Below, in pieces: positions 2,242 through 55,067 of a DNA stretch of 64,000 nt. Source of the DNA: Escherichia coli (GTDB lineage: Bacteria > Pseudomonadota > Gammaproteobacteria > Enterobacterales > Enterobacteriaceae); assembly GCF_017348835.2 (NCBI RefSeq), contig NZ_CP071375.1, one strand, 5' to 3'. A program made the translations under genes and the position numbers. A model generated the notes under the pieces. That model was not told the DNA's origin and searched no databases. It saw nothing but the letters and a program-made list of their open reading frames with translations. How positions within the stretch are numbered: the first letter of the stretch is position 1; each line of letters begins with the position of its first letter.

Positions 2242-3199
2242 AGCACTACTGAACGCGGGACGTCAGACGTTAATGCTGGAGTTGCAGGAAGCAAGCCGCT
2301 TACCGGAACGTCTGGGCGATGATTTTGTTCGCGCCGCCAATATCATCCTGCACTGCGAAGGCAAAGTGGTGGTTTCGGGAATTGGCAAATCGGGCCACAT
2401 TGGTAAGAAAATCGCCGCAACGCTTGCCAGTACTGGCACACCGGCTTTTTTTGTCCATCCGGCAGAAGCACTGCACGGCGATCTGGGGATGATCGAAAGC
2501 CGCGATGTGATGCTGTTTATCTCTTACTCCGGTGGCGCGAAGGAACTGGATCTGATTATTCCGCGTCTGGAAGACAAATCTATCGCGCTGCTGGCAATGA
2601 CAGGAAAACCGACGTCACCGCTGGGCCTGGCAGCGAAAGCGGTACTGGATATTTCGGTAGAACGCGAAGCCTGTCCGATGCATCTTGCGCCGACCTCGAG
2701 CACCGTCAATACCCTGATGATGGGCGACGCGCTGGCGATGGCAGTCATGCAGGCGCGCGGTTTTAATGAAGAAGATTTTGCCCGTTCACATCCAGCTGGG
2801 GCACTGGGCGCTCGCTTGCTGAACAAAGTGCATCATCTGATGCGCCGTGATGACGCCATCCCGCAGGTGGCGGTAAATGCCAGTGTAATGGACGCGATGC
2901 TGGAACTCAGCCGCACCGGTCTGGGGCTGGTGGCGGTATGTGACGCTCAACAACAGGTACAAGGCGTCTTTACCGACGGCGATTTACGTCGCTGGCTGGT
3001 TGGCGGCGGCGCACTCACCACGCCAGTTAATGAAGCGATGACGACAGGCGGCACCACATTACAGGCGCAAAGTCGCGCCATCGACGCCAAAGAGATCCTG
3101 ATGAAGCGCAAAATCACTGCCGCACCGGTGGTGGATGAAAACGGCAAACTCACCGGAGCAATTAACCTGCAGGATTTCTATCAGGCCGGGATTATTTAA
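2234..3199 (+). CDS. gutQ: D-arabinose-5-phosphate isomerase (SIS + tandem CBS domains)
   Basis: 321-aa ORF with a SIS domain ([11 protein letters not shown]) and C-terminal CBS pair; last gene of the srl cluster. Confidence 0.9.
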
Positions 3200-4710
3200 T
3201 CCTTCAATCCCAGACGTTTCGCCAACCGATGCAGGTTGGCGACGTCAGTTTCCAGCATTCGCGCGCAGGCAGCCCAGTTGTGATGATTTTGTGCCAGTGC
3301 CTGACGAATAGTTTCACGCTGGAACGCTTCTGTCGCTTCACGCAGGTTTTGCTTAACAACGGGCACCGCCGCCGCTTCTGGCGGCGGTAACGTCACCTCA
3401 GGAAAAGCAAAATGTTGCGCCTCAAGAATCACTTCATCGCCGTTGCGGGTGGCTCTCGCCAACACTACCGCCCGATGAATAGCATGTTCCAGTTCGCGCA
3501 CGTTCCCCGGAAAACGATAGTGTTGCAGTAAATTTCGCGCTCCGGCACTTAATACCACGCGGGAGAGCCCCAGCCGCAAACGACACTGCTCGCAGAAATA
3601 CCCCGCCAGCAGAATGACATCATCGCCCCGCTCACGCAGCGGCGGCACCGAAAGTGGAAACACGCTCAGGCGGTGGAACAAGTCAGCGCGAAATCGCCCT
3701 GCCAGCACCTCTTCGCGTAAATCGCGGTTAGTCGCCGCCAGCACGCGCACATCGACCCGCAAACTACGGTCATCGCCAACGCGCTGAATATCGCCATACT
3801 GCAACACCCTCAGCAGCTTGGCCTGCAATGCCAACGACAACTCGCCGATCTCATCGAGAAACAGCGTGCCGTTATCCGCCATTTCAAACTTCCCACTGCG
3901 GTTACTGATAGCGCCAGTAAACGCTCCTTTCACATGCCCGAACAACTCACTTTCCGCCACACTTTCCGGCAGTGCGGCACAGTTGAGATAGACCAGCGGA
4001 TTCACCGCCCTTGGCGAGGCTTCATGAATCGCTTTCGCCACCAGCTCCTTACCGGTTCCCGTCTCACCGCTGATTAAGACGTTGAGATCGGACGCCGCCA
4101 CAATCTCAATCTCTTTTTTCAATTGCGTCATGCCTGGCGATAAGCCAATCATCTGCGTCTGTTTCACCGCTTCAAATGGAGCGGCATCGCCCGGCAGCAT
4201 ATTCTGGCTTTCCAGTTGCTCAATCAGCAACGCATTGCTTAACGCTCCCGCCGCCAGCGCAGCAATCAGCCGTAACTCTTCATCGCTGAAAACATCGAAC
4301 TGATCGGGCTGCATCCCGTCGAGCGTCAATGCGCCAATCAGGTTTTGCCCGGCAAACAACGGCAGACCAACGCAGGCGTGAACCTTCAGACTCTCCTGCC
4401 CTGGAATCAAACCGTCATAGGGATCGGGCAATTCGCTGTCTGCGGGAAAGCGCACCACGTCCCCGGCGCGGGCAATCGCTTCCAGCCGTGGATGACCTTC
4501 CAGCGCAAAGCGTCTACCGAGTACATCCTTCGCCAGCCCGTCGATGGCAAGCGGAATAAACTGCCGCGAGTCGTAACGTAGCAACGCAGACGCATCGCAC
4601 TCCAGCACCTGACGCAGCGTGGTGATCAGGCGCTGAAAACGATCCTGATGACCAATCCCACGCTGCAATTCGATGGCGATATTCGCCAGCACATCAACGG
4701 AAAAACTCAT
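3196..4710 (-). CDS. norR: sigma54-dependent nitric-oxide-responsive transcriptional activator
   Basis: 504 aa from MSFSVDV...; GAF domain, AAA+ sigma54-interaction domain ([14 protein letters not shown]) and C-terminal HTH; divergent from norV. The listed ORF starts 25 codons upstream at an earlier Met. Confidence 0.9.
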
Positions 4711-4722
4711 CTTTGCCTCACT

Positions 4723-4778
4723 GTCAATTTGACTATAGATATTGTCATATCGACCATTTGATTGATAGTCATTTTGAC
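4723..4778. promoter_or_regulatory. three NorR-type operator sites (GT-N7-AC) in the norR-norV intergenic region
   Basis: gtcaatttgac (4723-4733), gtcatatcgac (4744-4754) and gtcattttgac (4768-4778) are read directly; the GT-N7-AC pattern is the established NorR enhancer motif. Confidence 0.6.
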
Positions 4779-4833
4779 TACTCATTAATGAGCATAATTT
4801 TATTTATAGAGTAAAAACAATCAGATAAAAAAC

Positions 4834-4849
4834 TGGCACGCAATCTGCA
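4834..4849 (+). promoter_or_regulatory. sigma54 (-24/-12) promoter of norVW
   Basis: TGGCAC-gcaat-CTGCA fits TGGCAC-N5-TTGCW, about 50 bp upstream of the norV ATG and downstream of the NorR sites. Confidence 0.6.
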
Positions 4850-4896: not shown

Positions 4897-6336
4897 ATGT
4901 CTATTGTGGTGAAAAATAACATTCATTGGGTTGGTCAACGTGACTGGGAAGTGCGTGATTTTCACGGTACAGAATATAAAACGCTGCGCGGCAGCAGCTA
5001 CAACAGCTACCTCATCCGCGAAGAAAAAAACGCGCTGATCGACACCGTCGACCATAAATTCAGCCGCGAATTTGTGCAGAACCTGCGTAATGAAATCGAT
5101 CTGGCGGATATCGATTACATCGTGATTAACCATGCAGAAGAGGACCACGCCGGGGCGCTGACCGAACTGATGGCACAAATTCCCGATACGCCGATCTACT
5201 GTACAGCCAACGCTATCGACTCGATAAATGGTCATCACCATCATCCGGAGTGGAATTTTAATGTGGTGAAAACTGGCGACACGCTGGATATCGGCAACGG
5301 CAAACAGCTCATTTTTGTCGAAACACCAATGCTGCACTGGCCGGACAGCATGATGACTTACCTGACAGGCGACGCGGTGCTGTTCAGTAACGATGCTTTC
5401 GGTCAGCACTACTGCGACGAGCATCTGTTCAACGATGAAGTGGATCAGACGGAGCTTTTCGAGCAGTGCCAGCGTTACTACGCCAATATCCTGACGCCGT
5501 TCAGCCGCCTGGTAACGCCGAAAATTACCGAGATCCTGGGCTTTAACTTACCAGTCGATATGATAGCGACCTCCCACGGCGTGGTCTGGCGCGATAACCC
5601 GACGCAAATTGTCGAGCTGTACCTGAAGTGGGCCGCTGATTATCAGGAAGACAGAATCACCATTTTCTACGACACCATGTCGAATAACACCCGCATGATG
5701 GCTGACGCTATCGCCCAGGGGATTGCGGAAACCGACCCACGCGTGGCGGTGAAAATTTTCAACGTCGCCCGAAGCGATAAAAACGAAATCCTGACCAATG
5801 TCTTCCGCTCAAAAGGCGTGCTGGTCGGCACTTCGACGATGAATAACGTGATGATGCCGAAAATCGCCGGGCTGGTGGAGGAGATGACCGGATTACGCTT
5901 CCGTAACAAACGCGCCAGTGCTTTCGGCTCTCACGGCTGGAGCGGCGGTGCGGTGGATCGTCTTTCCACGCGCCTGCAGGATGCGGGTTTCGAAATGTCG
6001 CTTAGCCTGAAAGCGAAATGGCGACCAGACCAGGACGCTCTGGAGTTATGCCGTGAACACGGTCGCGAAATCGCCCGTCAGTGGGCGCTCGCGCCGCTGC
6101 CGCAGAGCACGGTGAATACGGTAGTTAAAGAAGAAACCTCTGCCACCACGACGGCTGACCTCGGCCCACGGATGCAGTGCAGCGTCTGCCAGTGGATTTA
6201 CGATCCGGCAAAAGGCGAGCCAATGCAGGACGTTGCGCCAGGAACGCCGTGGAGTGAAGTCCCGGATAACTTCCTGTGCCCGGAATGCTCCCTCGGCAAA
6301 GACGTCTTTGACGAACTGGCATCGGAGGCAAAATGA
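4897..6336 (+). CDS. norV: anaerobic nitric oxide reductase flavorubredoxin
   Basis: 479-aa ORF with a metallo-beta-lactamase-like di-iron domain, a flavodoxin domain and a C-terminal rubredoxin CxxC...CxxC; appears full-length. Confidence 0.93.
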
Positions 6337-7466
6337 GCAACGGCATTGTGATCATTGGTTCGGGCTTCGCCGCCCGCCAACTGGTGAAAAATATTCGCAA
6401 ACAGGACGCCAGTATTCCATTAACCCTGATTGCCGCCGACAGCATGGATGAGTACAACAAACCTGACCTCAGCCATGTTATCAGTCAGGGGCAACGTGCC
6501 GACGACCTTACCCGCCAGACGGCGGGTGAATTTGCCGAGCAGTTTAATCTGCTCCTGTTTCCGCAAACCTGGGTGACGGATATCGATGCCGAAGCCCGTG
6601 TGGTGAAAAGCCAGAATAATCAGTGGCGATACGACAAGCTAGTGCTGGCAACCGGTGCCAGCGCCTTTGTCCCGCCAGTGCCTGGGCGTGAGTTAATGCT
6701 GACGTTAAATAGTCAGCAAGAGTATCGCGCCTGTGAAACGCAACTGCGGGATGCCCGACGCGTGTTGATTGTTGGCGGTGGCTTGATTGGTAGCGAACTG
6801 GCGATGGATTTTTGTCATGCAGGCAAAGCGGTCACGCTAATCGACAACGCTGCCAGTATTCTGGCGTCGTTAATGCCACCAGAAGTAAGCAGCCGCTTGC
6901 AGCATCGGTTGACGGAGATGGGCGTTCATCTGCTGTTGAAATCTCAGTTGCAGGGGCTGGAAAAAACGGATTCTGGCATTCTGGCAACGCTGGACCGCCA
7001 GCGTAGCATCGAAGTGGATGCGGTAATTGCCGCCACCGGACTGCGCCCGGAAACCGCCCTGGCACGACGCGCCGGGCTGACGATTAATCGCGGCGTTTGC
7101 GTCGATAGTTATCTGCAAACCAGTAATGCCGATATTTACGCGCTGGGCGATTGCGCGGAAATTAACGGTCAGGTACTGCCGTTCCTGCAGCCGATTCAAC
7201 TTAGCGCGATGGTGCTGGCAAAAAATCTTCTCGGCAATAACACGCCGCTAAAACTACCGGCGATGCTGGTGAAAATCAAAACGCCGGAATTACCGCTGCA
7301 TCTGGCAGGCGAAACCCAGCGTCAGGATTTACGCTGGCAGATTAATACCGAAAGCCAGGGAATGGTGGCGCGCGGTGTTGACGATGCAGACCAGCTTCGC
7401 GCCTTTGTGGTCAGTGAGGATCGGATGAAAGAGGCATTTGGATTGTTGAAAACATTGCCGATGTAG
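6333..7466 (+). CDS. norW: NADH:flavorubredoxin oxidoreductase
   Basis: 377-aa ORF with two GxGxxG/A dinucleotide-binding motifs; 4-nt overlap with norV. Confidence 0.93.
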
Positions 7467-14948: not shown

Positions 14949-15368
14949 TCAAAGAAACCATTCCGGCTTAACGCCAAATCGGGCTGAAAGTGCCTTAATG
15001 TGGGATATTGTCAGGGATCGTTGTCCAGACAAAATCTGACTAACCAGGGATTTAGAGCCGATTTCGTTCTTCAAATCCGCATAGGTCAGATTATGTTGAT
15101 CAATCAACGTGCGAAGTAACGCCACGCCAACCGGCATTGCCGCAACGGCTTTGTCGAACTCTGCAAACTTTTCGTTGTTGTTTTCATACTCTGCAATGCG
15201 GCTCGCCAGAAAGTCGATAAGTGGATTGGTGTCATCTTCTTCAATCAAATATTCGACCAGTTCCAGTGCTTCACGATAATCATCTTCTGAGTCACTGCCT
15301 CCCAGAAAGGGGACTGCATTGACCAGTTCTCTTGTTGCTTTAACAGCGCGTGCAGCATTAGCAGTCAT
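14949..15368 (-). CDS. HigA-like antitoxin (XRE-family HTH)
   Basis: 139-aa ORF with a C-terminal XRE-type HTH (LTYADLKNEIGSKSLVSQILSGQRSLTISHIKALSARFGV); 4-nt overlap with the upstream toxin-like ORF; resembles chromosomal HigA but sits at a different locus. Confidence 0.75.
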   Translation of the reverse strand: MTANAARAVKATRELVNAVPFLGGSDSEDDYREALELVEYLIEEDDTNPLIDFLASRIAEYENNNEKFAEFDKAVAAMPVGVALLRTLIDQHNLTYADLKNEIGSKSLVSQILSGQRSLTISHIKALSARFGVKPEWFL

Positions 15369-15676
15369 TCTTTGTTCTCTCTGTAGTAACGTGTCAGTTT
15401 GTCATACTCTGCGTGATTCGTTATGTGCTTCACAAAGAACCGCTTATTAACAAAGTTTATGTAGGCAATAACCCTAAGATTGTTCCCGCCGACATCCAGA
15501 ACGTACCATTTGTTGCGATATTTAAAATTGTCGAGGTTGGGAAACGCCGTTCGCATTTCTTCTGGCGTAGAAAAATCCGTTTCCTTAATAACCCGATACA
15601 ATGCCTGAAGAGCCAGAGCGTCGTTAGGATATTTACGCGCAGACTCTTCAAATGGCACTTTAGAAATGATGTGCAT
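15365..15676 (-). CDS. HigB-like (RelE/ParE superfamily) toxin
   Basis: 103-aa basic ORF upstream of, and translationally coupled to, the HTH antitoxin; contains a FPxLDNFKY...VGGN.LRV motif as in HigB-type toxins; toxin-first order typical of HigBA. Confidence 0.7.
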   Translation of the reverse strand: MHIISKVPFEESARKYPNDALALQALYRVIKETDFSTPEEMRTAFPNLDNFKYRNKWYVLDVGGNNLRVIAYINFVNKRFFVKHITNHAEYDKLTRYYRENKE

Positions 15677-23912: not shown

Positions 23913-24036
23913 CAGGCATTCCTCAGGTGATTGTCATTTTTGACGAAAACATGCCGATGAAATGTCATTTTCGACACTCATCGACACGCCCATCCCCAAA
24001 CAGGCGTAACGCCTGCAAAACGGGCAAAGCCTCAGC

Positions 24037-28327: not shown

Positions 28328-28400
28328 TAAAATTCTAAATCTCCTATAGTTAGTCAATGACCTTTTGCACCGCTTTGCGGTGCTTTCCTGGAAGAACAAA

Positions 28401-30479
28401 ATGTCATATACACCGATGAGTGATCTCGGACAGCAAGGGTTGTTCGACATCACTCGGACACTATTGCAGCAGCCCGATCTGGCCTCGCTGTGTGAGGCTC
28501 TTTCGCAACTGGTAAAGCGTTCTGCGCTCGCCGACAACGCGGCTATTGTGTTGTGGCAAGCGCAGACTCAACGTGCGTCTTATTACGCATCGCGTGAAAA
28601 AGACACCCCCATTAAATATGAAGACGAAACTGTTCTGGCACACGGTCCGGTACGCAGCATTTTGTCGCGCCCTGATACGCTGCATTGCAGTTACGAAGAA
28701 TTTTGTGAAACCTGGCCGCAGCTGGCCGCAGGTGGGCTATACCCAAAATTTGGTCACTATTGCCTGATGCCACTGGCGGCGGAAGGGCATATTTTTGGTG
28801 GCTGTGAATTTATTCGTTATGACGATCGCCCCTGGAGCGAAAAAGAGTTCAATCGTCTGCAAACATTTACGCAGATCGTTTCTGTCGTCACCGAACAAAT
28901 CCAGAGCCGCGTCGTTAACAATGTCGACTATGAGTTGTTATGCCGGGAACGCGATAACTTCCGCATCCTGGTCGCCATCACCAACGCGGTGCTTTCCCGC
29001 CTGGATATGGACGAACTGGTCAGCGAAGTCGCCAAAGAAATCCATTACTATTTCGACATTGACGATATCAGCATCGTCTTACGCAGTCACCGTAAAAACA
29101 AACTCAACATCTACTCCACTCACTATCTTGATAAACAGCATCCCGCCCACGAACAGAGCGAAGTCGATGAAGCCGGAACCCTCACCGAACGCGTGTTCAA
29201 AAGTAAAGAGATGCTGCTGATTAATCTCCACGAGCGGGATGATTTAGCCCCCTATGAACGCATGTTGTTCGACACCTGGGGCAACCAGATTCAAACCTTG
29301 TGCCTGTTACCGCTGATGTCTGGCGACACCATGCTGGGCGTGCTGAAACTGGCGCAATGTGAAGAGAAAGTGTTTACCACTACCAATCTGAATTTACTGC
29401 GCCAGATTGCCGAACGTGTGGCAATCGCTGTCGATAACGCCCTCGCCTATCAGGAAATCCATCGTCTGAAAGAACGGCTGGTTGATGAAAACCTCGCCCT
29501 GACCGAGCAGCTCAACAATGTTGATAGTGAATTTGGCGAGATTATTGGCCGCAGCGAAGCCATGTACAGCGTGCTTAAACAAGTTGAAATGGTGGCGCAA
29601 AGTGACAGTACCGTGCTGATCCTCGGTGAAACTGGCACGGGTAAAGAGCTGATTGCCCGTGCTATCCATAATCTCAGTGGGCGTAATAATCGCCGCATGG
29701 TCAAAATGAACTGCGCGGCGATGCCTGCCGGATTGCTGGAGAGCGATCTGTTTGGTCATGAGCGTGGAGCTTTTACCGGTGCCAGCGCCCAGCGTATCGG
29801 TCGTTTTGAACTGGCGGATAAAAGCTCCCTGTTCCTCGACGAAGTGGGCGATATGCCACTGGAGTTACAGCCGAAGTTGCTGCGTGTATTGCAGGAACAG
29901 GAGTTTGAACGCCTCGGCAGCAACAAAATCATTCAGACGGACGTGCGTCTAATCGCCGCGACTAACCGCGATCTGAAAAAAATGGTCGCCGACCGTGAGT
30001 TCCGTAGCGATCTCTATTACCGCCTGAACGTATTCCCGATTCACCTTCCGCCACTACGCGAGCGTCCGGAAGATATTCCGCTGCTGGCGAAAGCCTTTAC
30101 CTTCAAAATTGCCCGTCGTCTGGGGCGCAATATCGACAGCATTCCTGCCGAGACGTTGCGCACCTTGAGCAATATGGAGTGGCCGGGTAACGTACGCGAA
30201 CTGGAAAACGTCATTGAGCGCGCGGTATTGCTAACACGCGGCAACGTGCTGCAGCTGTCATTGCCAGATATTGCTTTACCGGAGCCTGAAACGCCGCCTG
30301 CCGCAACGGTTGTCGCTCAGGAGGGCGAAGATGAATATCAGTTGATTGTTCGCGTGCTGAAAGAAACTAACGGCGTGGTTGCCGGGCCTAAAGGCGCTGC
30401 GCAACGTCTGGGGCTGAAACGCACGACCCTGCTGTCACGGATGAAGCGACTGGGAATTGATAAATCGGCATTGATTTAA
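28401..30479 (+). CDS. fhlA: formate hydrogenlyase sigma54-dependent transcriptional activator
   Basis: 692 aa from MSYTPMSDLGQQG; GAF domains, AAA+ sigma54-interaction domain ([14 protein letters not shown]) and C-terminal HTH. The listed ORF starts 12 codons upstream. Confidence 0.9.
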   Translation: MSYTPMSDLGQQGLFDITRTLLQQPDLASLCEALSQLVKRSALADNAAIVLWQAQTQRASYYASREKDTPIKYEDETVLAHGPVRSILSRPDTLHCSYEEFCETWPQLAAGGLYPKFGHYCLMPLAAEGHIFGGCEFIRYDDRPWSEKEFNRLQTFTQIVSVVTEQIQSRVVNNVDYELLCRERDNFRILVAITNAVLSRLDMDELVSEVAKEIHYYFDIDDISIVLRSHRKNKLNIYSTHYLDKQHPAHEQSEVDEAGTLTERVFKSKEMLLINLHERDDLAPYERMLFDTWGNQIQTLCLLPLMSGDTMLGVLKLAQCEEKVFTTTNLNLLRQIAERVAIAVDNALAYQEIHRLKERLVDENLALTEQLNNVDSEFGEIIGRSEAMYSVLKQVEMVAQSDSTVLILGETGTGKELIARAIHNLSGRNNRRMVKMNCAAMPAGLLESDLFGHERGAFTGASAQRIGRFELADKSSLFLDEVGDMPLELQPKLLRVLQEQEFERLGSNKIIQTDVRLIAATNRDLKKMVADREFRSDLYYRLNVFPIHLPPLRERPEDIPLLAKAFTFKIARRLGRNIDSIPAETLRTLSNMEWPGNVRELENVIERAVLLTRGNVLQLSLPDIALPEPETPPAATVVAQEGEDEYQLIVRVLKETNGVVAGPKGAAQRLGLKRTTLLSRMKRLGIDKSALI

Positions 30480-30488
30480 CTGCAAATT

Positions 30489-30512
30489 GCCGGACAGATC
30501 TGACTGTCCGGC
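30489..30512. terminator. hairpin between convergent fhlA and ygbA (possible bidirectional terminator)
   Basis: gccggacag-atctga-ctgtccggc, a 9-bp perfect stem 10 nt after the fhlA stop; no strong T-run, so termination function is inferred. Confidence 0.4.
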
Positions 30513-30515
30513 ATA

Positions 30516-30869
30516 CTATTCACGAGGTTTTTTCGGACGATATTTTTCCGGCAGTTCTGGCACCGGACGCTTGTCATCGATGAGATGACGCACGGTTAAG
30601 ATCGGATGACGCCACAGCATTCTCGGCCCGGCCCAACGCATAATCTGTTTCATCTCTTCACGCTTTGCAGGCTGGTAACAGTGCACCGGACACTGCTTAC
30701 AGGCTGGTTTCTCTTCGCCGAACACACATTTATCCAGCCGCTTTTGCGCGTAAACAAACAACGCCTCGTAATGCTCCGGCTCCGCTGACGCCTGCGGGCA
30801 TTTCGCTTGATAAAGATCGATCATTTTTTTAATCGTCAGTTTTTCACGAGAGATACGCTTGCCGGACAT
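30516..30869 (-). CDS. ygbA: conserved Cys-rich protein of the NO-responsive (NsrR) regulon
   Basis: 117-aa ORF with several Cys residues, convergent with fhlA and divergent from mutS. Confidence 0.85.
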   Translation of the reverse strand: MSGKRISREKLTIKKMIDLYQAKCPQASAEPEHYEALFVYAQKRLDKCVFGEEKPACKQCPVHCYQPAKREEMKQIMRWAGPRMLWRHPILTVRHLIDDKRPVPELPEKYRPKKPRE

Positions 30870-30896
30870 GCTGCCTCCATACTCTTAAGGTGTATT

Positions 30897-30919
30897 TATA
30901 CTACAACTTAATTTGAAAG
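30897..30919. promoter_or_regulatory. candidate NsrR operator upstream of ygbA
   Basis: aaggtgtatttatactacaactt is an imperfect inverted repeat of the AAGATGyATTT...AAATrCATCTT type, 28 bp upstream of the ygbA start. Confidence 0.45.
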
Positions 30920-31155
30920 GGGACTATGGCTCTGAAGGAGGAGGTTTATTCAACCGACGCAATTTTGCGTACTTGCTTCATAAGCATCACGCAAAAGCTG
31001 CAAAACAGCATCTTTCCCGGAACCAACATCAAGAACTCGCCGTTCGCTTCTTCCCCTGAAATGATTAACTCCGGTATCATGTGCGCCTTATGTGATTACA
31101 ACGAAAATAAAAACCATCACACCCCATTTAATATCAGGGAACCGGACATAACCCC

Positions 31156-33717
31156 ATGAGTGCAATAGAAAATTTCGACGCCCATACGCCCATGATGCAG
31201 CAGTATCTCAAGCTGAAAGCCCAGCATCCCGAGATCCTGCTGTTTTACCGGATGGGTGATTTTTATGAACTGTTTTATGACGACGCAAAACGCGCATCGC
31301 AACTGCTGGATATTTCACTGACCAAACGCGGTGCTTCGGCGGGAGAGCCGATCCCGATGGCGGGGATTCCCTACCATGCGGTGGAAAACTACCTCGCCAA
31401 ACTGGTGAATCAGGGCGAGTCCGTTGCCATCTGCGAACAAATTGGCGATCCGGCGACCAGCAAAGGTCCGGTTGAGCGCAAAGTTGTGCGTATCGTTACG
31501 CCAGGCACCATCAGCGATGAAGCCCTGTTGCAGGAGCGTCAGGACAACCTGCTGGCGGCTATCTGGCAGGACAGCAAAGGTTTCGGCTACGCGACGCTGG
31601 ATATCAGTTCCGGTCGTTTTCGCCTGAGCGAACCGGCTGACCGGGAAACGATGGCGGCAGAACTGCAACGCACTAATCCTGCGGAACTGCTGTATGCAGA
31701 AGATTTTGCTGAAATGTCGTTAATTGAAGGCCGTCGCGGCCTGCGCCGTCGCCCGCTGTGGGAGTTTGAAATCGACACCGCGCGCCAGCAGTTGAATCTG
31801 CAATTTGGGACCCGCGATCTGGTCGGTTTTGGCGTCGAGAACGCGCCGCGCGGACTTTGTGCTGCCGGTTGTCTGTTGCAGTATGCGAAAGATACCCAAC
31901 GTACGACTCTGCCGCATATTCGTTCCATCACCATGGAACGTGAGCAGGACAGCATCATTATGGATGCCGCGACGCGTCGTAATCTGGAAATCACCCAGAA
32001 CCTGGCGGGTGGTGCGGAAAATACGCTGGCTTCTGTGCTCGACTGCACCGTCACGCCGATGGGCAGCCGTATGCTGAAACGCTGGCTGCATATGCCAGTG
32101 CGCGATACCCGCGTGTTGCTTGAGCGCCAGCAAACTATTGGCGCATTGCAGGATTTCACCGCCGGGCTACAGCCGGTACTGCGTCAGGTCGGCGACCTGG
32201 AACGTATTCTGGCACGTCTGGCTTTACGAACTGCTCGCCCACGCGATCTGGCCCGTATGCGCCACGCTTTCCAGCAACTGCCGGAGCTGCGTGCGCAGTT
32301 AGAAACTGTCGCTAGTGCACCGGTACAGGCGCTACGTAAGAAGATGGGCGAGTTTGCCGAGCTGCGCGATCTGCTGGAGCGAGCAATCATCGACACACCG
32401 CCGGTGCTGGTACGCGACGGTGGTGTTATCGCATCGGGCTATAACGAAGAGCTGGATGAGTGGCGCGCGCTGGCTGACGGCGCGACCGATTATCTGGAGC
32501 GTCTGGAAGTCCGCGAGCGTGAACGTACCGGCCTGGACACGCTAAAAGTTGGCTTTAATGCGGTGCACGGCTACTACATTCAAATCAGCCGTGGGCAAAG
32601 CCATCTGGCACCTATCAACTATATGCGTCGCCAGACGCTGAAAAACGCCGAGCGCTACATCATTCCAGAGCTAAAAGAGTACGAAGATAAAGTCCTCACT
32701 TCAAAAGGCAAAGCACTGGCTCTGGAAAAACAGCTTTATGAAGAGCTGTTCGACCTGCTGTTGCCGCATCTGGAAGCGTTGCAACAGAGCGCGAGCGCGC
32801 TGGCGGAACTCGACGTGCTGGTGAACCTGGCGGAACGGGCCTATACCCTGAACTACACCTGCCCGACCTTCATTGATAAACCGGGCATTCGCATTACCGA
32901 AGGCCGCCATCCGGTGGTTGAACAGGTGCTGAACGAGCCATTTATCGCCAACCCGCTGAATCTGTCACCGCAGCGCCGGATGTTGATTATTACCGGTCCG
33001 AACATGGGCGGTAAAAGTACCTATATGCGCCAGACCGCACTGATTGCGCTGATGGCCTATATCGGCAGCTACGTACCGGCGCAAAAAGTCGAGATTGGCC
33101 CGATTGACCGTATCTTTACCCGCGTAGGGGCAGCGGATGATCTGGCTTCCGGGCGTTCAACCTTTATGGTGGAGATGACCGAAACCGCTAATATTCTGCA
33201 TAACGCCACCGAGTACAGTCTGGTGCTGATGGATGAGATTGGGCGCGGAACGTCCACTTACGATGGTCTGTCGCTGGCGTGGGCGTGCGCGGAAAATCTG
33301 GCGAATAAGATTAAGGCGTTGACGCTGTTTGCCACCCACTATTTCGAGCTGACCCAGTTACCGGAGAAAATGGAAGGCGTCGCCAACGTGCATCTCGATG
33401 CACTGGAGCACGGCGACACCATTGCCTTTATGCATAGCGTGCAGGATGGCGCGGCGAGCAAAAGCTACGGCCTGGCGGTTGCAGCTCTGGCCGGCGTGCC
33501 AAAAGAGGTTATTAAGCGCGCACGGCAAAAACTGCGTGAGCTGGAAAGCATTTCGCCGAACGCCGCCGCTACGCAAGTGGATGGTACGCAAATGTCTTTG
33601 CTGGCAGTGCCAGAAGAAACCTCGCCTGCGGTCGAGGCACTGGAAAACCTCGATCCGGATTCACTCACCCCGCGTCAGGCGCTGGAGTGGATTTATCGCT
33701 TGAAGAGTCTGGTATAA
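31156..33717 (+). CDS. mutS: DNA mismatch repair protein
   Basis: 853-aa ORF with the mismatch-binding N-terminus ([21 protein letters not shown]...GDFYELF), Walker A (GPNMGGKST) and C-terminal dimerisation region. Confidence 0.95.
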
Positions 33718-47482: not shown

Positions 47483-48520
47483 ATGTTTTCCGCATTGCGC
47501 CACCGTACCGCTGCCCTGGCGCTCGGCGTATGCTTTATTCTCCCCGTACACGCCTCGTCACCTAAACCTGGCGATTTTGCTAATACTCAGGCACGACATA
47601 TTGCTACTTTCTTTCCGGGACGCATGACCGGAACTCCTGCAGAAATGTTATCTGCCGATTATATTCGCCAACAGTTTCAGCAAATGGGTTATCGCAGTGA
47701 TATTCGGACATTTAATAGTCGGTATATTTATACCGCCCGCGATAATCGTAAGAGCTGGCATAACGTGACAGGAAGTACGGTGATTGCCGCTCATGAAGGC
47801 AAAGCGCCGCAGCAGATCATCATTATGGCGCATCTGGATACTTACGCCCCGCTGAGCGATGCTGACGCCGATGCCAATCTCGGCGGGCTGACGTTACAAG
47901 GAATGGATGATAACGCCGCAGGTTTAGGTGTCATGCTGGAATTGGCAGAACGCCTGAAAAATACGCCTACCGAGTATGGTATTCGATTTGTGGCGACCAG
48001 CGGCGAAGAGGAAGGGAAATTAGGCGCTGAGAATTTACTCAAGCGGATGAGTGACACCGAAAAGAAAAATACGCTGCTGGTGATTAATCTCGATAACTTA
48101 ATTGTTGGCGATAAATTGTATTTCAACAGCGGTGTAAAAACCCCTGAAGCAGTAAGGAAATTAACGCGCGACAGGGCGCTGGCAATTGCGCGCAGTCATG
48201 GAATTGCCGCAACGACCAATCCGGGTTTGAATAAAAATTATCCGAAAGGCACTGGGTGTTGTAATGACGCAGAAATATTCGACAAAGCGGGCATTGCTGT
48301 ACTTTCGGTGGAAGCGACTAACTGGAATCTTGGGAATAAGGATGGTTATCAGCAACGCGCAAAAACAGCCGCATTCCCTGCGGGAAATAGCTGGCATGAT
48401 GTAAGGCTTGATAATCAACAGCATATTGATAAGGCACTTCCTGGAAGAATAGAACGTCGCTGCCGTGATGTTATGCGGATAATGCTACCACTGGTGAAGG
48501 AGCTGGCGAAGGCGTCTTGA
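47483..48520 (+). CDS. iap: alkaline phosphatase isozyme conversion aminopeptidase
   Basis: 345-aa ORF with a signal peptide and M28-like peptidase core, adjacent to the CRISPR array. Confidence 0.88.
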   Translation: MFSALRHRTAALALGVCFILPVHASSPKPGDFANTQARHIATFFPGRMTGTPAEMLSADYIRQQFQQMGYRSDIRTFNSRYIYTARDNRKSWHNVTGSTVIAAHEGKAPQQIIIMAHLDTYAPLSDADADANLGGLTLQGMDDNAAGLGVMLELAERLKNTPTEYGIRFVATSGEEEGKLGAENLLKRMSDTEKKNTLLVINLDNLIVGDKLYFNSGVKTPEAVRKLTRDRALAIARSHGIAATTNPGLNKNYPKGTGCCNDAEIFDKAGIAVLSVEATNWNLGNKDGYQQRAKTAAFPAGNSWHDVRLDNQQHIDKALPGRIERRCRDVMRIMLPLVKELAKAS

Positions 48521-48540
48521 TGGGTTTGAAAATGGGAGCT

Positions 48541-48814
48541 GGGAGTTCTACCGCAGGGGCGGGGAATTCTCAGTGATATCCATCATCGCATCCAGTGCGC
48601 CCGGTTTATCCCCGCTGGCGCGGGGAACACTGCAGGTTTTTAGGGATAGTCACTGCAATACGCGGTTTATCCCCGCTGGCGCGGGGAACACGCAAGCCGC
48701 CCATTTGACGGTCACGCCAGTTACCGGTTTATCCCCGCTGGCGCGGGGAACACCCGGGATAGCCGATAACGATGGCGGCTCTGGGCGGTTTATCCCCGCT
48801 GGCGCGGGGAACAC
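48541..48814 (-). CRISPR. short type I-E CRISPR array: 4 intact 29-bp repeats plus one degenerate terminal repeat, 4 spacers
   Basis: CGGTTTATCCCCGCTGGCGCGGGGAACAC occurs at 48602-48630, 48663-48691, 48725-48753 and 48786-48814, with spacers of 32, 33 and 32 bp. A degenerate copy (18/29) lies at 48541-48569, leaving a 32-bp spacer at 48570-48601. Minus-strand repeat is GTGTTCCCCGCGCCAGCGGGGATAAACCG. Confidence 0.92.
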
Positions 48815-48910
48815 ACTAAGCATACATATCTGTTTTTAAACAAATTTATTCCACATCAACAATCTACCAACTAAATTCAAACATTTCCTTATTTTTAAAG
48901 AACACATAAC
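48815..48910 (-). promoter_or_regulatory. AT-rich CRISPR leader
   Basis: About 96 bp of AT-rich sequence between the last intact repeat and the cas2 remnant, the normal leader position for an E. coli I-E array. Confidence 0.55.
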
Positions 48911-49237
<327 letters not shown>

Positions 49238-49241
<4 letters not shown>

Positions 49242-50800
49242 TCAGCAGCCTCCTGCTTTTTCTCCCTGGCGGCTTTAGCACTTTGCTTCTCCGCCGATGT
49301 TGTAAAATATTTCTTGCGCGCGGTCATGACGCGTTCCAAATCAACGGGCTCATAAGGATTGGTGAATACACGCTCGTCAAAATCCTGACGTGCGAATAAC
49401 CAAATTTCCTTTTGCCATTTGCCGAGTAATTCATCCGCATCCTGACCTTCTTCAATTTGGCGCACTAACCTCAGGAAGCGATGCTGAGTTTTGTTCCAGA
49501 AGTCGATATCCACAAAACTGAAATCACCCCTTGCACCTTTTGGATCGGAGAACCATGCTTCTTTCAATGCACTCCGTAACAGACTCAGAATCCGTGAAGC
49601 CGTTTGCGCAGCCAGCCGCAGCTTCGGTATCTGGCCTTCTTTTTTATTGAGCAATAGAGGGAAATGGTGTTCGTACCAACAGCGAACCTTCATATCTTCG
49701 AAATCATAACCAAATCCCCACAAGCCTATTTTTGTCTGCTTTAGATTGCTGGCATTGAAAAGCTTCACTACCTGTGCGGGGAGTTCAGTATTGTTTTTTG
49801 ATTTACCTTCCTCTATGAGGCCTAACCAGTCGCGCCAGATTAAACCACCTGGTTGTGGTTTAACTGAGTAAAACTCTCCTCCCTCTTTAAGCGGCATACG
49901 GTAAGGTGTTAGAGGATGCCTCCACATGACGTATTGCACCCCATTGTTTTTAAGTGCCATCAAGCTCAATAGAGCGCCGCTCTGACTACCGCAAATATCG
50001 CAGTTGCCAATTGAGGTTGTCTTAAAATCAATACGAATACGCCGAGGCATTCCCCAGTAGGCCTGAAGTTTATTGACTTGTTCATCGGTTATCACAGCAC
50101 CATCCAGTTCACTGGTACGCGTCGGTGCAAGCCAGGGAAAGACCAGGTCATCAAAGGTTTTTGGTAAAGGTAAATCGGCTTCATCCTGTGGCATTACGTT
50201 AAGCCACAGCTTGCGCCACAAAGGGGGTTGTGGATTGCCCTGATACTCCAGCAATTCTATAAGTGTGGTCAGCGGCCCCCCGCCACGTAACCCCGGATAG
50301 TAACCGCGTCCACCTTTGGGAGCATTCAGCTGGATTGAAAAAAGTGCTAAAGGCACACAATGCAGGCATATATGCTGAATTGTATCTCGCTTAATAAAAT
50401 GGTCTTTATTTCGTTCTTTTGTTTGTTTTCCTGGTATGTCAGGAAGAAGCGAAGCAATAGAACTAACCTTAACTCTTAATTCTTCGAAATCCTGCATAAA
50501 TGAAGGTGAATCTGGCCCGAACTGGAAAGCATGTTCTAATAACAGCAATGCTTCCCGTAGCTTTTCGGCTTCCAGTCCGTCTTCCCAGATATCATCCCAA
50601 CGACGATGATCTTTTGGCGCGAAGCTGGTTTGTAGTAACCCCAGCAAAAACTGCCAGGCCGCCCCCTGGAGATCTGCCCGCGGCGCAGCGATATCGACAA
50701 CATTTTCATCCGCCAGATCGACTGGCGCCAGTTTGCCTGTCGTTCCGTCTTTAAAACGAACGGGCAACCACGGGGTTGTCAGAAGTGAAAACGAGTTCAT
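49238..50800 (-). CDS. casA: Cascade large subunit Cse1/CasA (variant distinct from the K-12 allele)
   Basis: 520 aa from MNSFSLLTTPWLPVRFKDGTTGKLAPVDL, a Cse1-type N-terminus; sits between cas3 and the cse2 start with the usual ATGA overlap. The start could instead be the upstream Met at 50860. Confidence 0.7.
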
Positions 50801-53538
50801 ACGCATCCTCTCGTAAAAAAGACCATCCAGGTCGGTTATCCATCCTTTTCGGTGTATCAACTATTCAGAGAGTCTCTGTCGCAGGCATCTCAATCAACCT
50901 TGCCAATCAATCCCTCCCTGGCCGAATACCCGCAACTTTCGTCATCAGTGACTAAAATCACGTTTGCCATCTCCGGATCTTGCCGTTGTTCAACACACCA
51001 CTGCCTGAACGCTTCCCCTTCCAGTAAAGAAAATTCATCCCGATGTTTTTTCCACCAGCTTCGACGCACTCTGGCAACGCTCATTTCCCATGCGTGAGCA
51101 CCGCTGGCATAAGGCTTCACCACACCGTCAATACAGGTAGCCAGCCACAGGGAAACAGACTCTTCAGCCAGACGTGTCGACAGCTTTTCCGGGAGGTAAT
51201 CGTTGATATTGGCGGCATAGCCGGGCCTGAAGTTCAGCATAAACTTTTTAGCCATTGCGCGATCGCAGTAATATTTGCCCACTTGCTCCTGCTCGCTGCG
51301 GGCAAATCCTTCCGGCATTACCACGTCCTCACCGTAGACGGATTCAATAAGAAGCCGGGCTGCGTGTGGCATCTGAATAGCGCCTTGCTCACGCAATACT
51401 CGCTGCGTCAGCCAGATTCGCCCATGATCGGGGTAGACATATGCGCTGTTACGCATCGCACTGCCAAACCATTCGTCACCCGGAGAGTCGTCCCAGACGG
51501 GGGCCAGAATCAGCAATTCAGGAGGGGAACGCTCGTCTTTTCCATCACGCTTTAACTGACCATTAATATCGCGAATATGCCGTTGTAATCGCCCCGCTCG
51601 CTGGATCAGCAAATCAATGGGGGCCAGGTCGGAGATCATTTCGTCCAGGTCAATATCCACACTTTGCTCAATTACTTGTGTACAAACAATGACTTGAGAT
51701 GATCTTTTTAAACTACAATTTTTACCAAAGCGTGCCAGCGTTTCCGTTTCAATTCGCTGGCGATCGCTAAAAGCAAAGCGGCTATGAAAAAGTGAAAGGC
51801 TGGAAGCAGGAATGACGCCGCGGGCAAGTAACTGACGATAAACCTTAATAGCGTCATCGACAGAATTCCGGATCCAGGCGATGCATTTCCCCTGACTTAC
51901 CGCTGATTCGATACGCGCAATACATTCTTGTTCGCTATGAAGCCAACCCACGCTCACGCTACGCTCAACGTCTTTGCGCGTCGCTACCCGGTGCGAATGC
52001 ACATCGGATTTCGTGACATGCGTCAGCCAGGGGTAATCATCCTTTTCCAGGAACGGAGCTTCTTGCTGGCCCTCTGTGCCACGCGCAAAGGCGGCGACAA
52101 GTTTGTCGCGCTGCTGTTGAGATAACGTAGCAGAAAGCAAAATGACGCTGTTTCCGCCACGCACCTGTCGCTCAATCAACCCTTCAAGAATGTACGACAT
52201 GTAAGCGTCACAGGCGTGGATCTCATCAGCCAGCAGGATTTTGTTACTCAACCCCAGAAGCCGCAGATTATTATGTTTAAACGGCATCACTGCCATCATC
52301 GCCTGATCCAGCGTGCCGACGCCAATTTCAGCCAGTAAAGCCTTCTTGTTACTGTCGGCAAACCAGGCTGCACATCCTTGACTGAACGCTTGTTCATCCG
52401 GTTCTTCTGACCCGACTAAATCACCGGACCAGAGTGATTCATTAAAGCGTTCCATTAATGTACGGGCGCTGTGTGCCAGCACCAGGCTGGGGCGGGATTC
52501 TGGCGAAAAGAAAGCAAGCCAGGTTTTGACCAGCCGATCGTACATGGCATTGGCCGTTGCCATTGTTGGCAGGCCAAAAAACAAACCCTGTGCTTTCCTC
52601 GCAGCCATCAACCTGTGCGCCAGGATAAGCGCCGCTTCTGTTTTACCTGCGCCAGTCACGTCTTCCAGAATAAATAACTTTGGCCCTGGCTGGCTGATAT
52701 CCAGATCCAGCACCTTTTGCTGTAATGGTGTCGGGTGCTCAATAAAAGGAAACAGCGTATTAATTCCGGTGAAAGGTGCGGTTTCTGCTTTTGGAGGAAA
52801 GACGGTTAAGGCGTTTTGAGCCTGAACTAAAGTTTTCTGCCAGTAATCTTTAATATCCATTGGGTGTGCGACGCGTGGAAAAAATCGCGTTGACGAACCC
52901 GTCCAGTCTGCGAGTACGACTGTTGCAGAGATATACCAGGAAAGTTGTTTTAAAAGTTCAACGCCCTCGTCATCATCCCAGAATGTGGGAATCTCTATGA
53001 GCGGAAACAGTGCCTTGATTTCAAGGAGAAAATCTCGCGCGGCAGCTTTGTCTTCAGGCAGAAAATTATCCAGCTCATCAATACGGTCAGGTGGTCGACC
53101 ATGATGCCCGGTAGTTATGGACATCCACATCTCTATTACACGTGTAAGTTTACGAGAAGAGAGTGAAGATGAAGGAAGCAACTCCTCACATTCACTTAAA
53201 TAATAATTCCACAGCCAGTAACCCAGCGTTGAATGAGAGATCTTTTCGTAATTCTTTCTGGAACCTTCCGGAATCTTGAGTTCAGGGGCCAGGTAAAGTT
53301 GCTGAAAAGAGCGGGCAAATTTTCCAATATCGTGCCAGCACAACAACCAGGCGAAAAATTGAGCCGCCTGTTCCTTGTCAGAAATCCCTAATTGACGAAA
53401 ATAATCAGCCAGCCCGAAGCAATTTCTTTTAACCATTAAATAGCCCATCGCGGCCACATCCAGCGAATGCCAGCAAAGAAGGTGTGAACCGCCCCGGAAA
53501 TCCTGGAGACTAAACTCCCTGAGAAAGAGGTAAACAGG

Positions 53539-53865
53539 ATGACTAAAAATACTCGTTTTTCCCCCGAAGTCCGTCAGCGGGCGATTCGTATGGTTCTGGA
53601 AAGTCAGGATGAATATGACTCACAGTGGGCGGCAATTTGTTCCATTGCCCCAAAGATTGGCTGTACGCCGGAGACTCTGCGTGTCTGGGTTCGCCAGCAT
53701 GAGCGGGATACCGGGAGTGGTGATGGTGGACTCACCACCGCTGAACGTCAGCGTCTGAAAGAGCTGGAACGTGAAAATCGTGAACTGCGCCGCAGTAACG
53801 ATATCCTTCGCCAGGCTTCCGCTTATTTTGCGAAGGCGGAGTTCGACCGCCTCTGGAAAAAATAA
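53539..53865 (+). CDS. IS3-family transposase OrfA (HTH / leucine zipper)
   Basis: 108-aa [25 protein letters not shown]... that I recognise as IS629/IS1203-type OrfA. Confidence 0.85.
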
Positions 53866-54752
53866 TGCCACTGCTGGATAAGCTGCGTGAGCAGTACGGG
53901 GTCGGACCGGTATGCAGCGAACTGCATATTGCCCCGTCAACGTATTACCATTGTCAGCAACAGCGACATCATCCGGATAAACGCAGTGCCCGTGCGCAGC
54001 ACGATGACTGGCTGAAGAAAGAGATACAGCGCGTATACGATGAAAATCACCAGGTATACGGTGTGCGTAAAGTCTGGCGTCAGTTGTTACGGGAAGGTAT
54101 CAGAGTGGCCAGATGCACTGTGGCACGTCTCATGGCAGTTATGGGACTTGCCGGTGTTCTCCGGGGTAAAAAGGTCCGCACTACCGTCAGCCGGAAAGCC
54201 GTTGCCGCATGCGACCGCGTAAACCGTCAGTTCGTGGCAGAACGTCCAGACCAGTTGTGGGTGGCTGATTTTACCTGGGTAAGCACATGGCAGGGCTTCG
54301 TTTATGTGGCGTTCATCATTGATGTGTTCGCCGGATACATCGTGGGATGGCAGGTCTCATCATCCATGGAAACAACATTCGTGCTGGATGCACTGGAGCA
54401 GGCGTTGTGGGCCCGTCGGCCGTCCGGCACAATCCATCACAGTGATAAAGGTTCTCAGTATGTATCGCTGGCCTACACGCAGCGGCTTAAGGAAGCCGGA
54501 TTACTGGCATCAACAGGGAGTACTGGCGACTCGTATGACAACGCGATGGCTGAGAGCATCAATGGTCTTTACAAAGCGGAGGTAATACACCGTAAGAGCT
54601 GGAAAAACCGGACAGAAGTGGAACTGGCCACACTAACGTGGGTGGACTGGTATAACAATCGACGATTGCTGGAAAGGCTGGGCCATATTCCTCCGGCAGA
54701 AGCAGAAAAAGCTTATTATGCTTCCATCGGAAATAATGATCTGGCAGCCTGA
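53865..54752 (+). CDS. IS3-family transposase OrfB (DDE integrase core)
   Basis: 295-aa ORF with an rve-type catalytic core (...HHSDKGSQY...YDNAMAESINGLYKAE...); its ATG overlaps the orfA stop (TAATG). Confidence 0.85.
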   Translation: MPLLDKLREQYGVGPVCSELHIAPSTYYHCQQQRHHPDKRSARAQHDDWLKKEIQRVYDENHQVYGVRKVWRQLLREGIRVARCTVARLMAVMGLAGVLRGKKVRTTVSRKAVAACDRVNRQFVAERPDQLWVADFTWVSTWQGFVYVAFIIDVFAGYIVGWQVSSSMETTFVLDALEQALWARRPSGTIHHSDKGSQYVSLAYTQRLKEAGLLASTGSTGDSYDNAMAESINGLYKAEVIHRKSWKNRTEVELATLTWVDWYNNRRLLERLGHIPPAEAEKAYYASIGNNDLAA

Positions 54753-55067
54753 GTTCACAGATAAAACACTCTCCAGGAAACCCGGGGCGGTTCAGTGATA
54801 GTCGTCACCCCCTTCTTTCTCGTCGCGTCGGGTTTTTCCCCAGAAATCAAAGAAAGTCACAATATTTTTATCCTTCAGTAAACTTAAAGGATATTTACGC
54901 ATATTTTAAAAATTATCTGTGATATATATCAGCCAATAAAACATTTATATTGTGAATAAATTTATGATTTTCATTTGAAATTCATAATAATAAATAGAGA
55001 CAATATATTCACATAAAAAATATAAATTTAAAAAAGGGTGCAGGAGACCAAACCATCACAATTCAAT

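Follow-up and report, generated by a model that had tools for sequence, protein, structure and literature searches.

A conserved NsrR operator upstream of Escherichia coli ygbA that probably contains the -10 hexamer of the ygbA promoter

The 64-kb stretch of DNA analysed here (the window) is part of an Escherichia coli chromosome and shows 3 mismatches in 64,000 positions to strain PE164 (NZ_CP114128.1). It contains ygbA (30516..30869, minus strand, start codon at 30869), which is annotated under that name in RefSeq and encodes a 117-aa protein of the YgbA_NO family (Pfam PF11756, E=1e-40). The gene is flanked by fhlA (28365..30479, plus strand), which PGAP misnames “flhA” throughout, and by mutS (31156..33717, plus strand), from which it is separated by an intergenic region of 286 bp (30870..31155). 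A Shine-Dalgarno sequence, GGAGG, can be read at 30878..30874 on the minus strand, and a G-rich block is conserved at the same place across species. A search of 30400..31300 against Rfam matched no family.

Annotations around this locus vary. Between ygbA and mutS, PGAP places a hypothetical protein of 44 aa (30946..31080, minus strand), with a terminator-like hairpin inside the reading frame (31009..30997, minus strand). We consider this gene a probable over-annotation because it has no Pfam match and is left unannotated in uropathogenic (UPEC) lineages, which have a 1-bp deletion within the frame. In B2/UPEC strains, including CFT073, a gene for a TOBE-domain protein rather than fhlA adjoins the 3' end of ygbA, and ygbA is annotated three codons shorter. 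Farther away, between hycI and ascB (14949..15676), the window carries a HigB-family toxin and helix-turn-helix (HTH) antitoxin pair together with a gene for a 251-aa hypothetical protein, all of which are presumably missing from K-12 at this place.

The feature of interest is the 23-mer AAGGTGTATTTATACTACAACTT, read on the plus strand at 30887..30909, which occurs once in the window. On the ygbA strand it reads AAGTTGTAGTA-T-AAATACACCTT, an arrangement of the 11-1-11 type found in NsrR operators. Its arms, AAGGTGTATTT and TACTACAACTT on the plus strand, flank a single central base and pair at 8 of 11 positions, so that the description of an imperfect 11-1-11 inverted repeat in an earlier note on this DNA was accurate. 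The same note had placed the repeat 28 bp upstream of ygbA. That distance is roughly right for the center of the repeat (30898), 29 nt upstream of the first base of the ATG, but wrong for its near edge, which is separated from the ATG by 17 nt (30870..30886). The two halves match the half-site consensus AAGATGCATTT unequally. The promoter-proximal half (30887..30897, minus strand; AAGGTGTATTT on the plus strand) agrees with it at 9 of 11 positions and in other species is near-consensus, AAATGCATCTT, while the promoter-distal half AAGTTGTAGTA (30899..30909, minus strand) agrees at 7 of 11 and is degenerate where, as set out below, the -10 hexamer appears to be encoded as well.

A site at this place has been published twice. 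Rodionov et al. 2005 (PMC1274295, supplementary table) listed the K-12 ygbA site as the 19-mer GATGtAaTaTAAATaCATC at -37, and Mehta et al. 2015 (PMC5320621, Table 4) listed the CFT073 ygbA site AAGGTGCATTTATATTACAACTT at coordinate 3137982. Both published sites are separated from the ygbA ATG by 17 nt and are exactly homologous to 30887..30909, sharing with it the gene, the distance to the start codon, and the 23-bp frame; in neither strain is the published site at a different position. A literal search of the literature for the versions of the site returned Mehta et al. 2015 alone. The window operator is identical to the K-12 allele at 19 of 23 bases and to the CFT073 allele at 21 of 23, and the three score equivalently against the matrix described below (21.6 bits for the window, 21.6 for K-12, and 21.0 for CFT073). 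As an allelic variant it begins AAGG rather than AAGA, has T at position 7 and A at position 20, and carries a rare C at 30901.

The literature on regulation agrees with these placements. In K-12, ygbA is reported to be repressed by NsrR (Bodenmiller and Spiro 2006, as cited in PMC5320621), and its promoter to be bound by NsrR in ChIP-chip experiments (Partridge et al. 2009, as cited in PMC5320621). The gene is induced by nitrate and nitrite, and in CFT073 it belongs to the genes with the strongest nitrate induction (PMC5320621); in a Salmonella nsrR mutant, ygbA expression was up 31.8-fold (PMC2884951). NsrR ChIP-seq in CFT073 gave no peak at ygbA, which its authors judge a probable false negative (PMC5320621).

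A bare inverted repeat of this quality is not significant, as 78 positions in the window pair at 8 or more of 11 in the 11-1-11 arrangement. Nor does an idealized consensus find the operator, which was missed at a threshold of three or fewer mismatches because it fits only 16 of 22 positions and has 6 mismatches; a position weight matrix was therefore the right test. The 11-1-11 sites that Mehta et al. 2015 give in their Table 4 (PMC5320621), ygbA excluded, were used to build a symmetric NsrR matrix. Using all 25 other sites, 30887..30909 was the top of 63,978 window positions (22.6 bits), and it also ranked first with a matrix from ChIP-positive sites only (22.8 bits) and with the same set minus hycB (23.1 bits). 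Against a uniform background the operator scored 21.6 bits. This is above the median of the sites from which the matrices were built (18.7-20.9 bits), and the scan recommended in the earlier note thus returned a high score rather than a low one. No other site of comparable score was found by the matrix scan in the intergenic region.

Scores of this size are rare by chance. The exact score distribution at window composition gave P=1.1e-8 per position, or about 7e-4 such matches expected per 64 kb; with the base composition of the ygbA-mutS spacer instead, P was 9e-8 per position, and at 65% A+T only about 0.03 matches would be expected per 64 kb. None of 200 dinucleotide shuffles reached the score of the operator, the best of them attaining 19.8 bits against 21.6. 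Taken together, the first rank in the matrix scan, the published homologous sites, and the regulation reported in the literature, the K-12 part of which is known to us as cited in PMC5320621, support the proposal of the earlier note that ygbA is an NsrR target.

The same scan drew attention to a match of about 16.9 bits, ATGATCTTTTTAAACTACAATTT, at 51699..51721, the second or third best in the window. It falls inside the coding sequence of cas3, which is AT rich, and we discounted it as probably fortuitous. This gene belongs to a type I-E CRISPR-Cas locus (about 48,400..55,000) that looks decayed: in the annotation of the near-identical PE164, a truncated casB, fused next to cas2e, comes after cas3 and casA, and cas3 is adjoined by a partial integrase/Hok gene and an IS3 transposase.

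Scanning one genome per species for YgbA, we obtained 80 loci from Enterobacteriaceae and relatives. In all 80, the best matrix match within 200 bp upstream was 12-21 nt away from the ATG, most often 18 nt, and the median score was 19.9 bits. In an alignment of 28 sequences covering the upstream 121 nt, all invariant or near-invariant columns except the ATG itself fell inside the 23 bp. When the 80 sequences were anchored on the site, information per position was 1.40 bits inside it, compared with 0.26 bits in the 40 nt upstream and 0.51 bits downstream. A matrix made from the ortholog sites correlated with the independent NsrR matrix at r=0.77, and at no more than 0.21 when the register was displaced by 1-3 nt.

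The pattern that is strongly conserved on the ygbA strand (90-100% per position) reads A1 A2... G6 T7 A8.. A11 T12.. A15 T16. C18 A19.. T22 T23, which is mostly the symmetric NsrR pattern. Three positions, T7, A11, and T12, deviate from the NsrR consensus, which has C at 7, T at 11, and any base at 12. With A8 they spell the hexamer TAnnAT at operator positions 7-12, in which T7, A8, and T12 are invariant across the 80 species and A11 is conserved at 97%. The hexamer is TAGTAT in the window, TAATAT in most E. coli, and TATTAT in most genera. In the upstream flank a single column is conserved, a G (90%) that follows T/T; this TTG occupies -17 to -15 from the operator and leaves a 17-bp spacer to the hexamer. 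A different block, AAATGAAAATAATTCTTATTT, is conserved about 90-110 nt upstream of ygbA in Citrobacter, Pseudocitrobacter, and Salmonella; it resembles a Fur box, is absent from E. coli, and presumably belongs to the divergent neighbor gene, which in Salmonella we take to be sitABCD and in E. coli is mutS.

The invariant TAnnAT and the conserved TTG 17 bp upstream of it lead us to propose that the operator contains the -10 hexamer of ygbA, the same bases probably encoding both elements. The putative -10 hexamer, TAGTAT, would lie at 30903..30898 on the minus strand and matches the consensus at 4 of 6 positions; a weak candidate -35 hexamer, TAGTCC, lies 17 bp upstream of it at 30926..30921 (minus strand) and matches TTGACA at 3 of 6. 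From promoter geometry, transcription is predicted to start at the A at 30891 (minus strand), which is preceded by C and lies 7 nt after the -10 hexamer. A scan for consensus sigma-70 promoters found nothing at threshold in the region upstream of ygbA, and the conservation pattern is what argues for the earlier note's statement that the operator overlaps the ygbA promoter.

Structural work on Streptomyces NsrR bears on the same question. The [4Fe-4S]-NsrR of Streptomyces coelicolor likewise binds a 23-bp pseudo-palindrome, the hmpA1 operator, as a dimer (PMC9338935, PMC5411485). In the crystal structure of NsrR on its operator, base-specific contacts are confined to the outer parts, and the central 7 bp have none and tolerate substitutions (PMC9338935). 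S. coelicolor is another organism whose NsrR recognizes another consensus, but if its contact map carries over to E. coli, as we infer, A11 and T12 lie within the contact-free center, and their conservation is best explained by the TAnnAT hexamer for that reason. Closer to home, the E. coli NsrR operators of ytfE, hmp, and hcp resemble that of ygbA in being 11-1-11 repeats with the consensus AAGATGCATTT-N-AAATGCATCTT a short distance before the start codon of a gene that NO induces. The ygbA site differs from them in being more degenerate (16 of 22) and in having its distal half held to TAnnAT in all species examined.

These observations suggest the following mechanism. A dimer of holo-NsrR, an Rrf2-family repressor, would bind the 23-bp 11-1-11 repeat at 30887..30909, which spans about -18 to +5 relative to the predicted start. 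Because the operator would cover the putative -10 hexamer and the predicted start, bound NsrR may be expected to keep RNA polymerase off the ygbA promoter by steric occlusion. NO would then nitrosylate and degrade the Fe-S cluster, NsrR would leave the DNA, and ygbA could be transcribed. The last steps follow Streptomyces NsrR, for which the NO-driven loss of the cluster, the consequent release from DNA, and the 23-bp operator geometry have been described (PMC5411485, PMC9338935). We regard it as very probable that 30887..30909 is the NsrR operator controlling ygbA; the repeat probably covers the -10 hexamer and the predicted start, and would then occlude the polymerase until NO acts. The exact -10 and -35 hexamers and the start of transcription are predictions drawn from sequence, and so, as a consequence, is repression by steric occlusion.

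Might the block instead be conserved merely as the core promoter of ygbA, its -10 hexamer, discriminator, and start, with NsrR acting elsewhere or indirectly? TAnnAT at positions 7-12 and TTG 17 bp upstream do behave like promoter elements, and the missing CFT073 ChIP-seq peak (PMC5320621) would fit such an arrangement. A core promoter does not, however, account for the nine conserved positions outside the hexamer (A1, A2, G6, A15, T16, C18, A19, T22, and T23), which are kept at 90-100% in the 80 species, five of them invariantly, and which are symmetric and fit the NsrR matrix (r=0.77) but no promoter element. The intergenic region also offers NsrR no site of comparable score elsewhere, and the K-12 ChIP-chip result is reported as positive (as cited in PMC5320621). 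We therefore judge this explanation very unlikely.

Marginally less likely still is an operator for a different regulator. FNR, NarL/NarP, and IscR, which is the other Rrf2 protein of E. coli, are examples of regulators that also respond to NO, nitrate, or nitrite. The induction of ygbA by nitrate and nitrite (PMC5320621) would be expected under such control, and the overall geometry of the repeat is common to Rrf2 operators (PMC9338935). Against this, the IscR type-1 motif ATASYYGACTRWWWYAGTCRRSTAT has no match in the window at three or fewer mismatches. The nearest FNR-like sites, at 30807..30820 (inside the ygbA coding sequence, 1 mismatch) and 30977..30990 (2 mismatches), are outside the block and not at class II spacing, and the block fits the NsrR matrix specifically. 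That the repeat is a chance imperfect palindrome without regulatory role, as the 78 window positions with repeats at least as good and the AT richness of the region might suggest, is effectively refuted by the matrix statistics (about 0.03 matches expected per 64 kb even at 65% A+T, and no shuffle of 200 reaching the score) and by the retention of both position and sequence, but not of the flanks, in 80 species.

With 30887..30909 taken as the NsrR operator, its variation within E. coli can be considered. Diversity in the ygbA-mutS spacer is unusually high: just 90-95% identity to the window was seen in 3,904 of 5,420 records, and K-12 is only 93.8% identical to it over 321 bp. Operator alleles vary at positions 4, 7, 15, and 20 and score alike (21.0-22.5 bits). 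The nearest haplotype, that of strain 38, shows a single difference over the 60 nt compared (30870..30929), having T where the window has C at 30901; this C turns the putative -10 hexamer from TAATAT into TAGTAT. The base is confined to a small lineage: the exact 41-mer 30878..30918 was found in only 26 of 5,426 complete E. coli genomes, a count made by megablast, to which diverged alleles are invisible. The rare allele occurs on an AAGG...AACTT background, the same as that of CFT073, the strain in which ygbA gave no ChIP-seq peak (PMC5320621). By consensus count, no E. coli version in this analysis is weaker than the window allele (16 of 22); K-12 has 18 of 22. It is conceivable, but on balance unlikely, that natural variation of this kind, the window allele with C at 30901 being the case at hand, alters NsrR occupancy or basal ygbA expression between lineages. 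In strain A2, from a platypus, an IS3 element has taken the place of all sequence farther than about 100 bp upstream of ygbA, and the operator is intact.

The window contains other points of NO-responsive control. norR (3196..4710, minus strand) is divergent from norV (4897..6336, plus strand) and norW (6333..7466, plus strand). The control region between norR and norV (4723..4848, plus strand) was examined for the NorR motif as defined in PMC1274295 and for a sigma-54 promoter of the type TGGCAC-N5-TTGC, and was found to have three GT-N7-AC NorR sites (at 4723, 4744, and 4768) upstream of a sigma-54 promoter, TGGCACGCAATCTGC, at 4834. These genes and sites bear out the earlier note's inclusion of norRVW as an NO-responsive point. 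Control of norVW is like that of ygbA in responding to NO, and it lies in the same window, 26 kb from the ygbA site; it differs in relying on an activator, which has three GT-N7-AC sites upstream of a sigma-54 promoter, rather than on an Fe-S repressor seated at a sigma-70 promoter.

A further NsrR site of the 11-1-11 type, AAATGACATTTCATCGGCATGTT (23948..23970, minus strand), lies 35 nt upstream of hycB and is identical to the CFT073 hycB site in Table 4 of Mehta et al. 2015. In CFT073, that site was the second-ranked of the listed NsrR ChIP-seq peaks, with 16-fold enrichment, hycB was strongly down in nitrate-grown cells, and a weaker NsrR peak was located between hycA and hypA (PMC5320621). 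The two control points counted in the earlier note were thus an undercount: with norVW, ygbA, and hycB, the window has at least three NO-responsive control points, and perhaps four if the weaker hycA/hypA peak is included.

The ygbA operator is real, its reading as an NsrR site is correct, and the site was already known, having been published twice. ygbA has long been counted in the NsrR regulon, and the observation has little import beyond correct annotation. What is added here is the footprint of the operator across 80 species together with a probable -10 hexamer in the same bases, a rare variant of that hexamer in this strain, and a corrected tally of the NO-responsive control points in this part of the E. 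coli chromosome.
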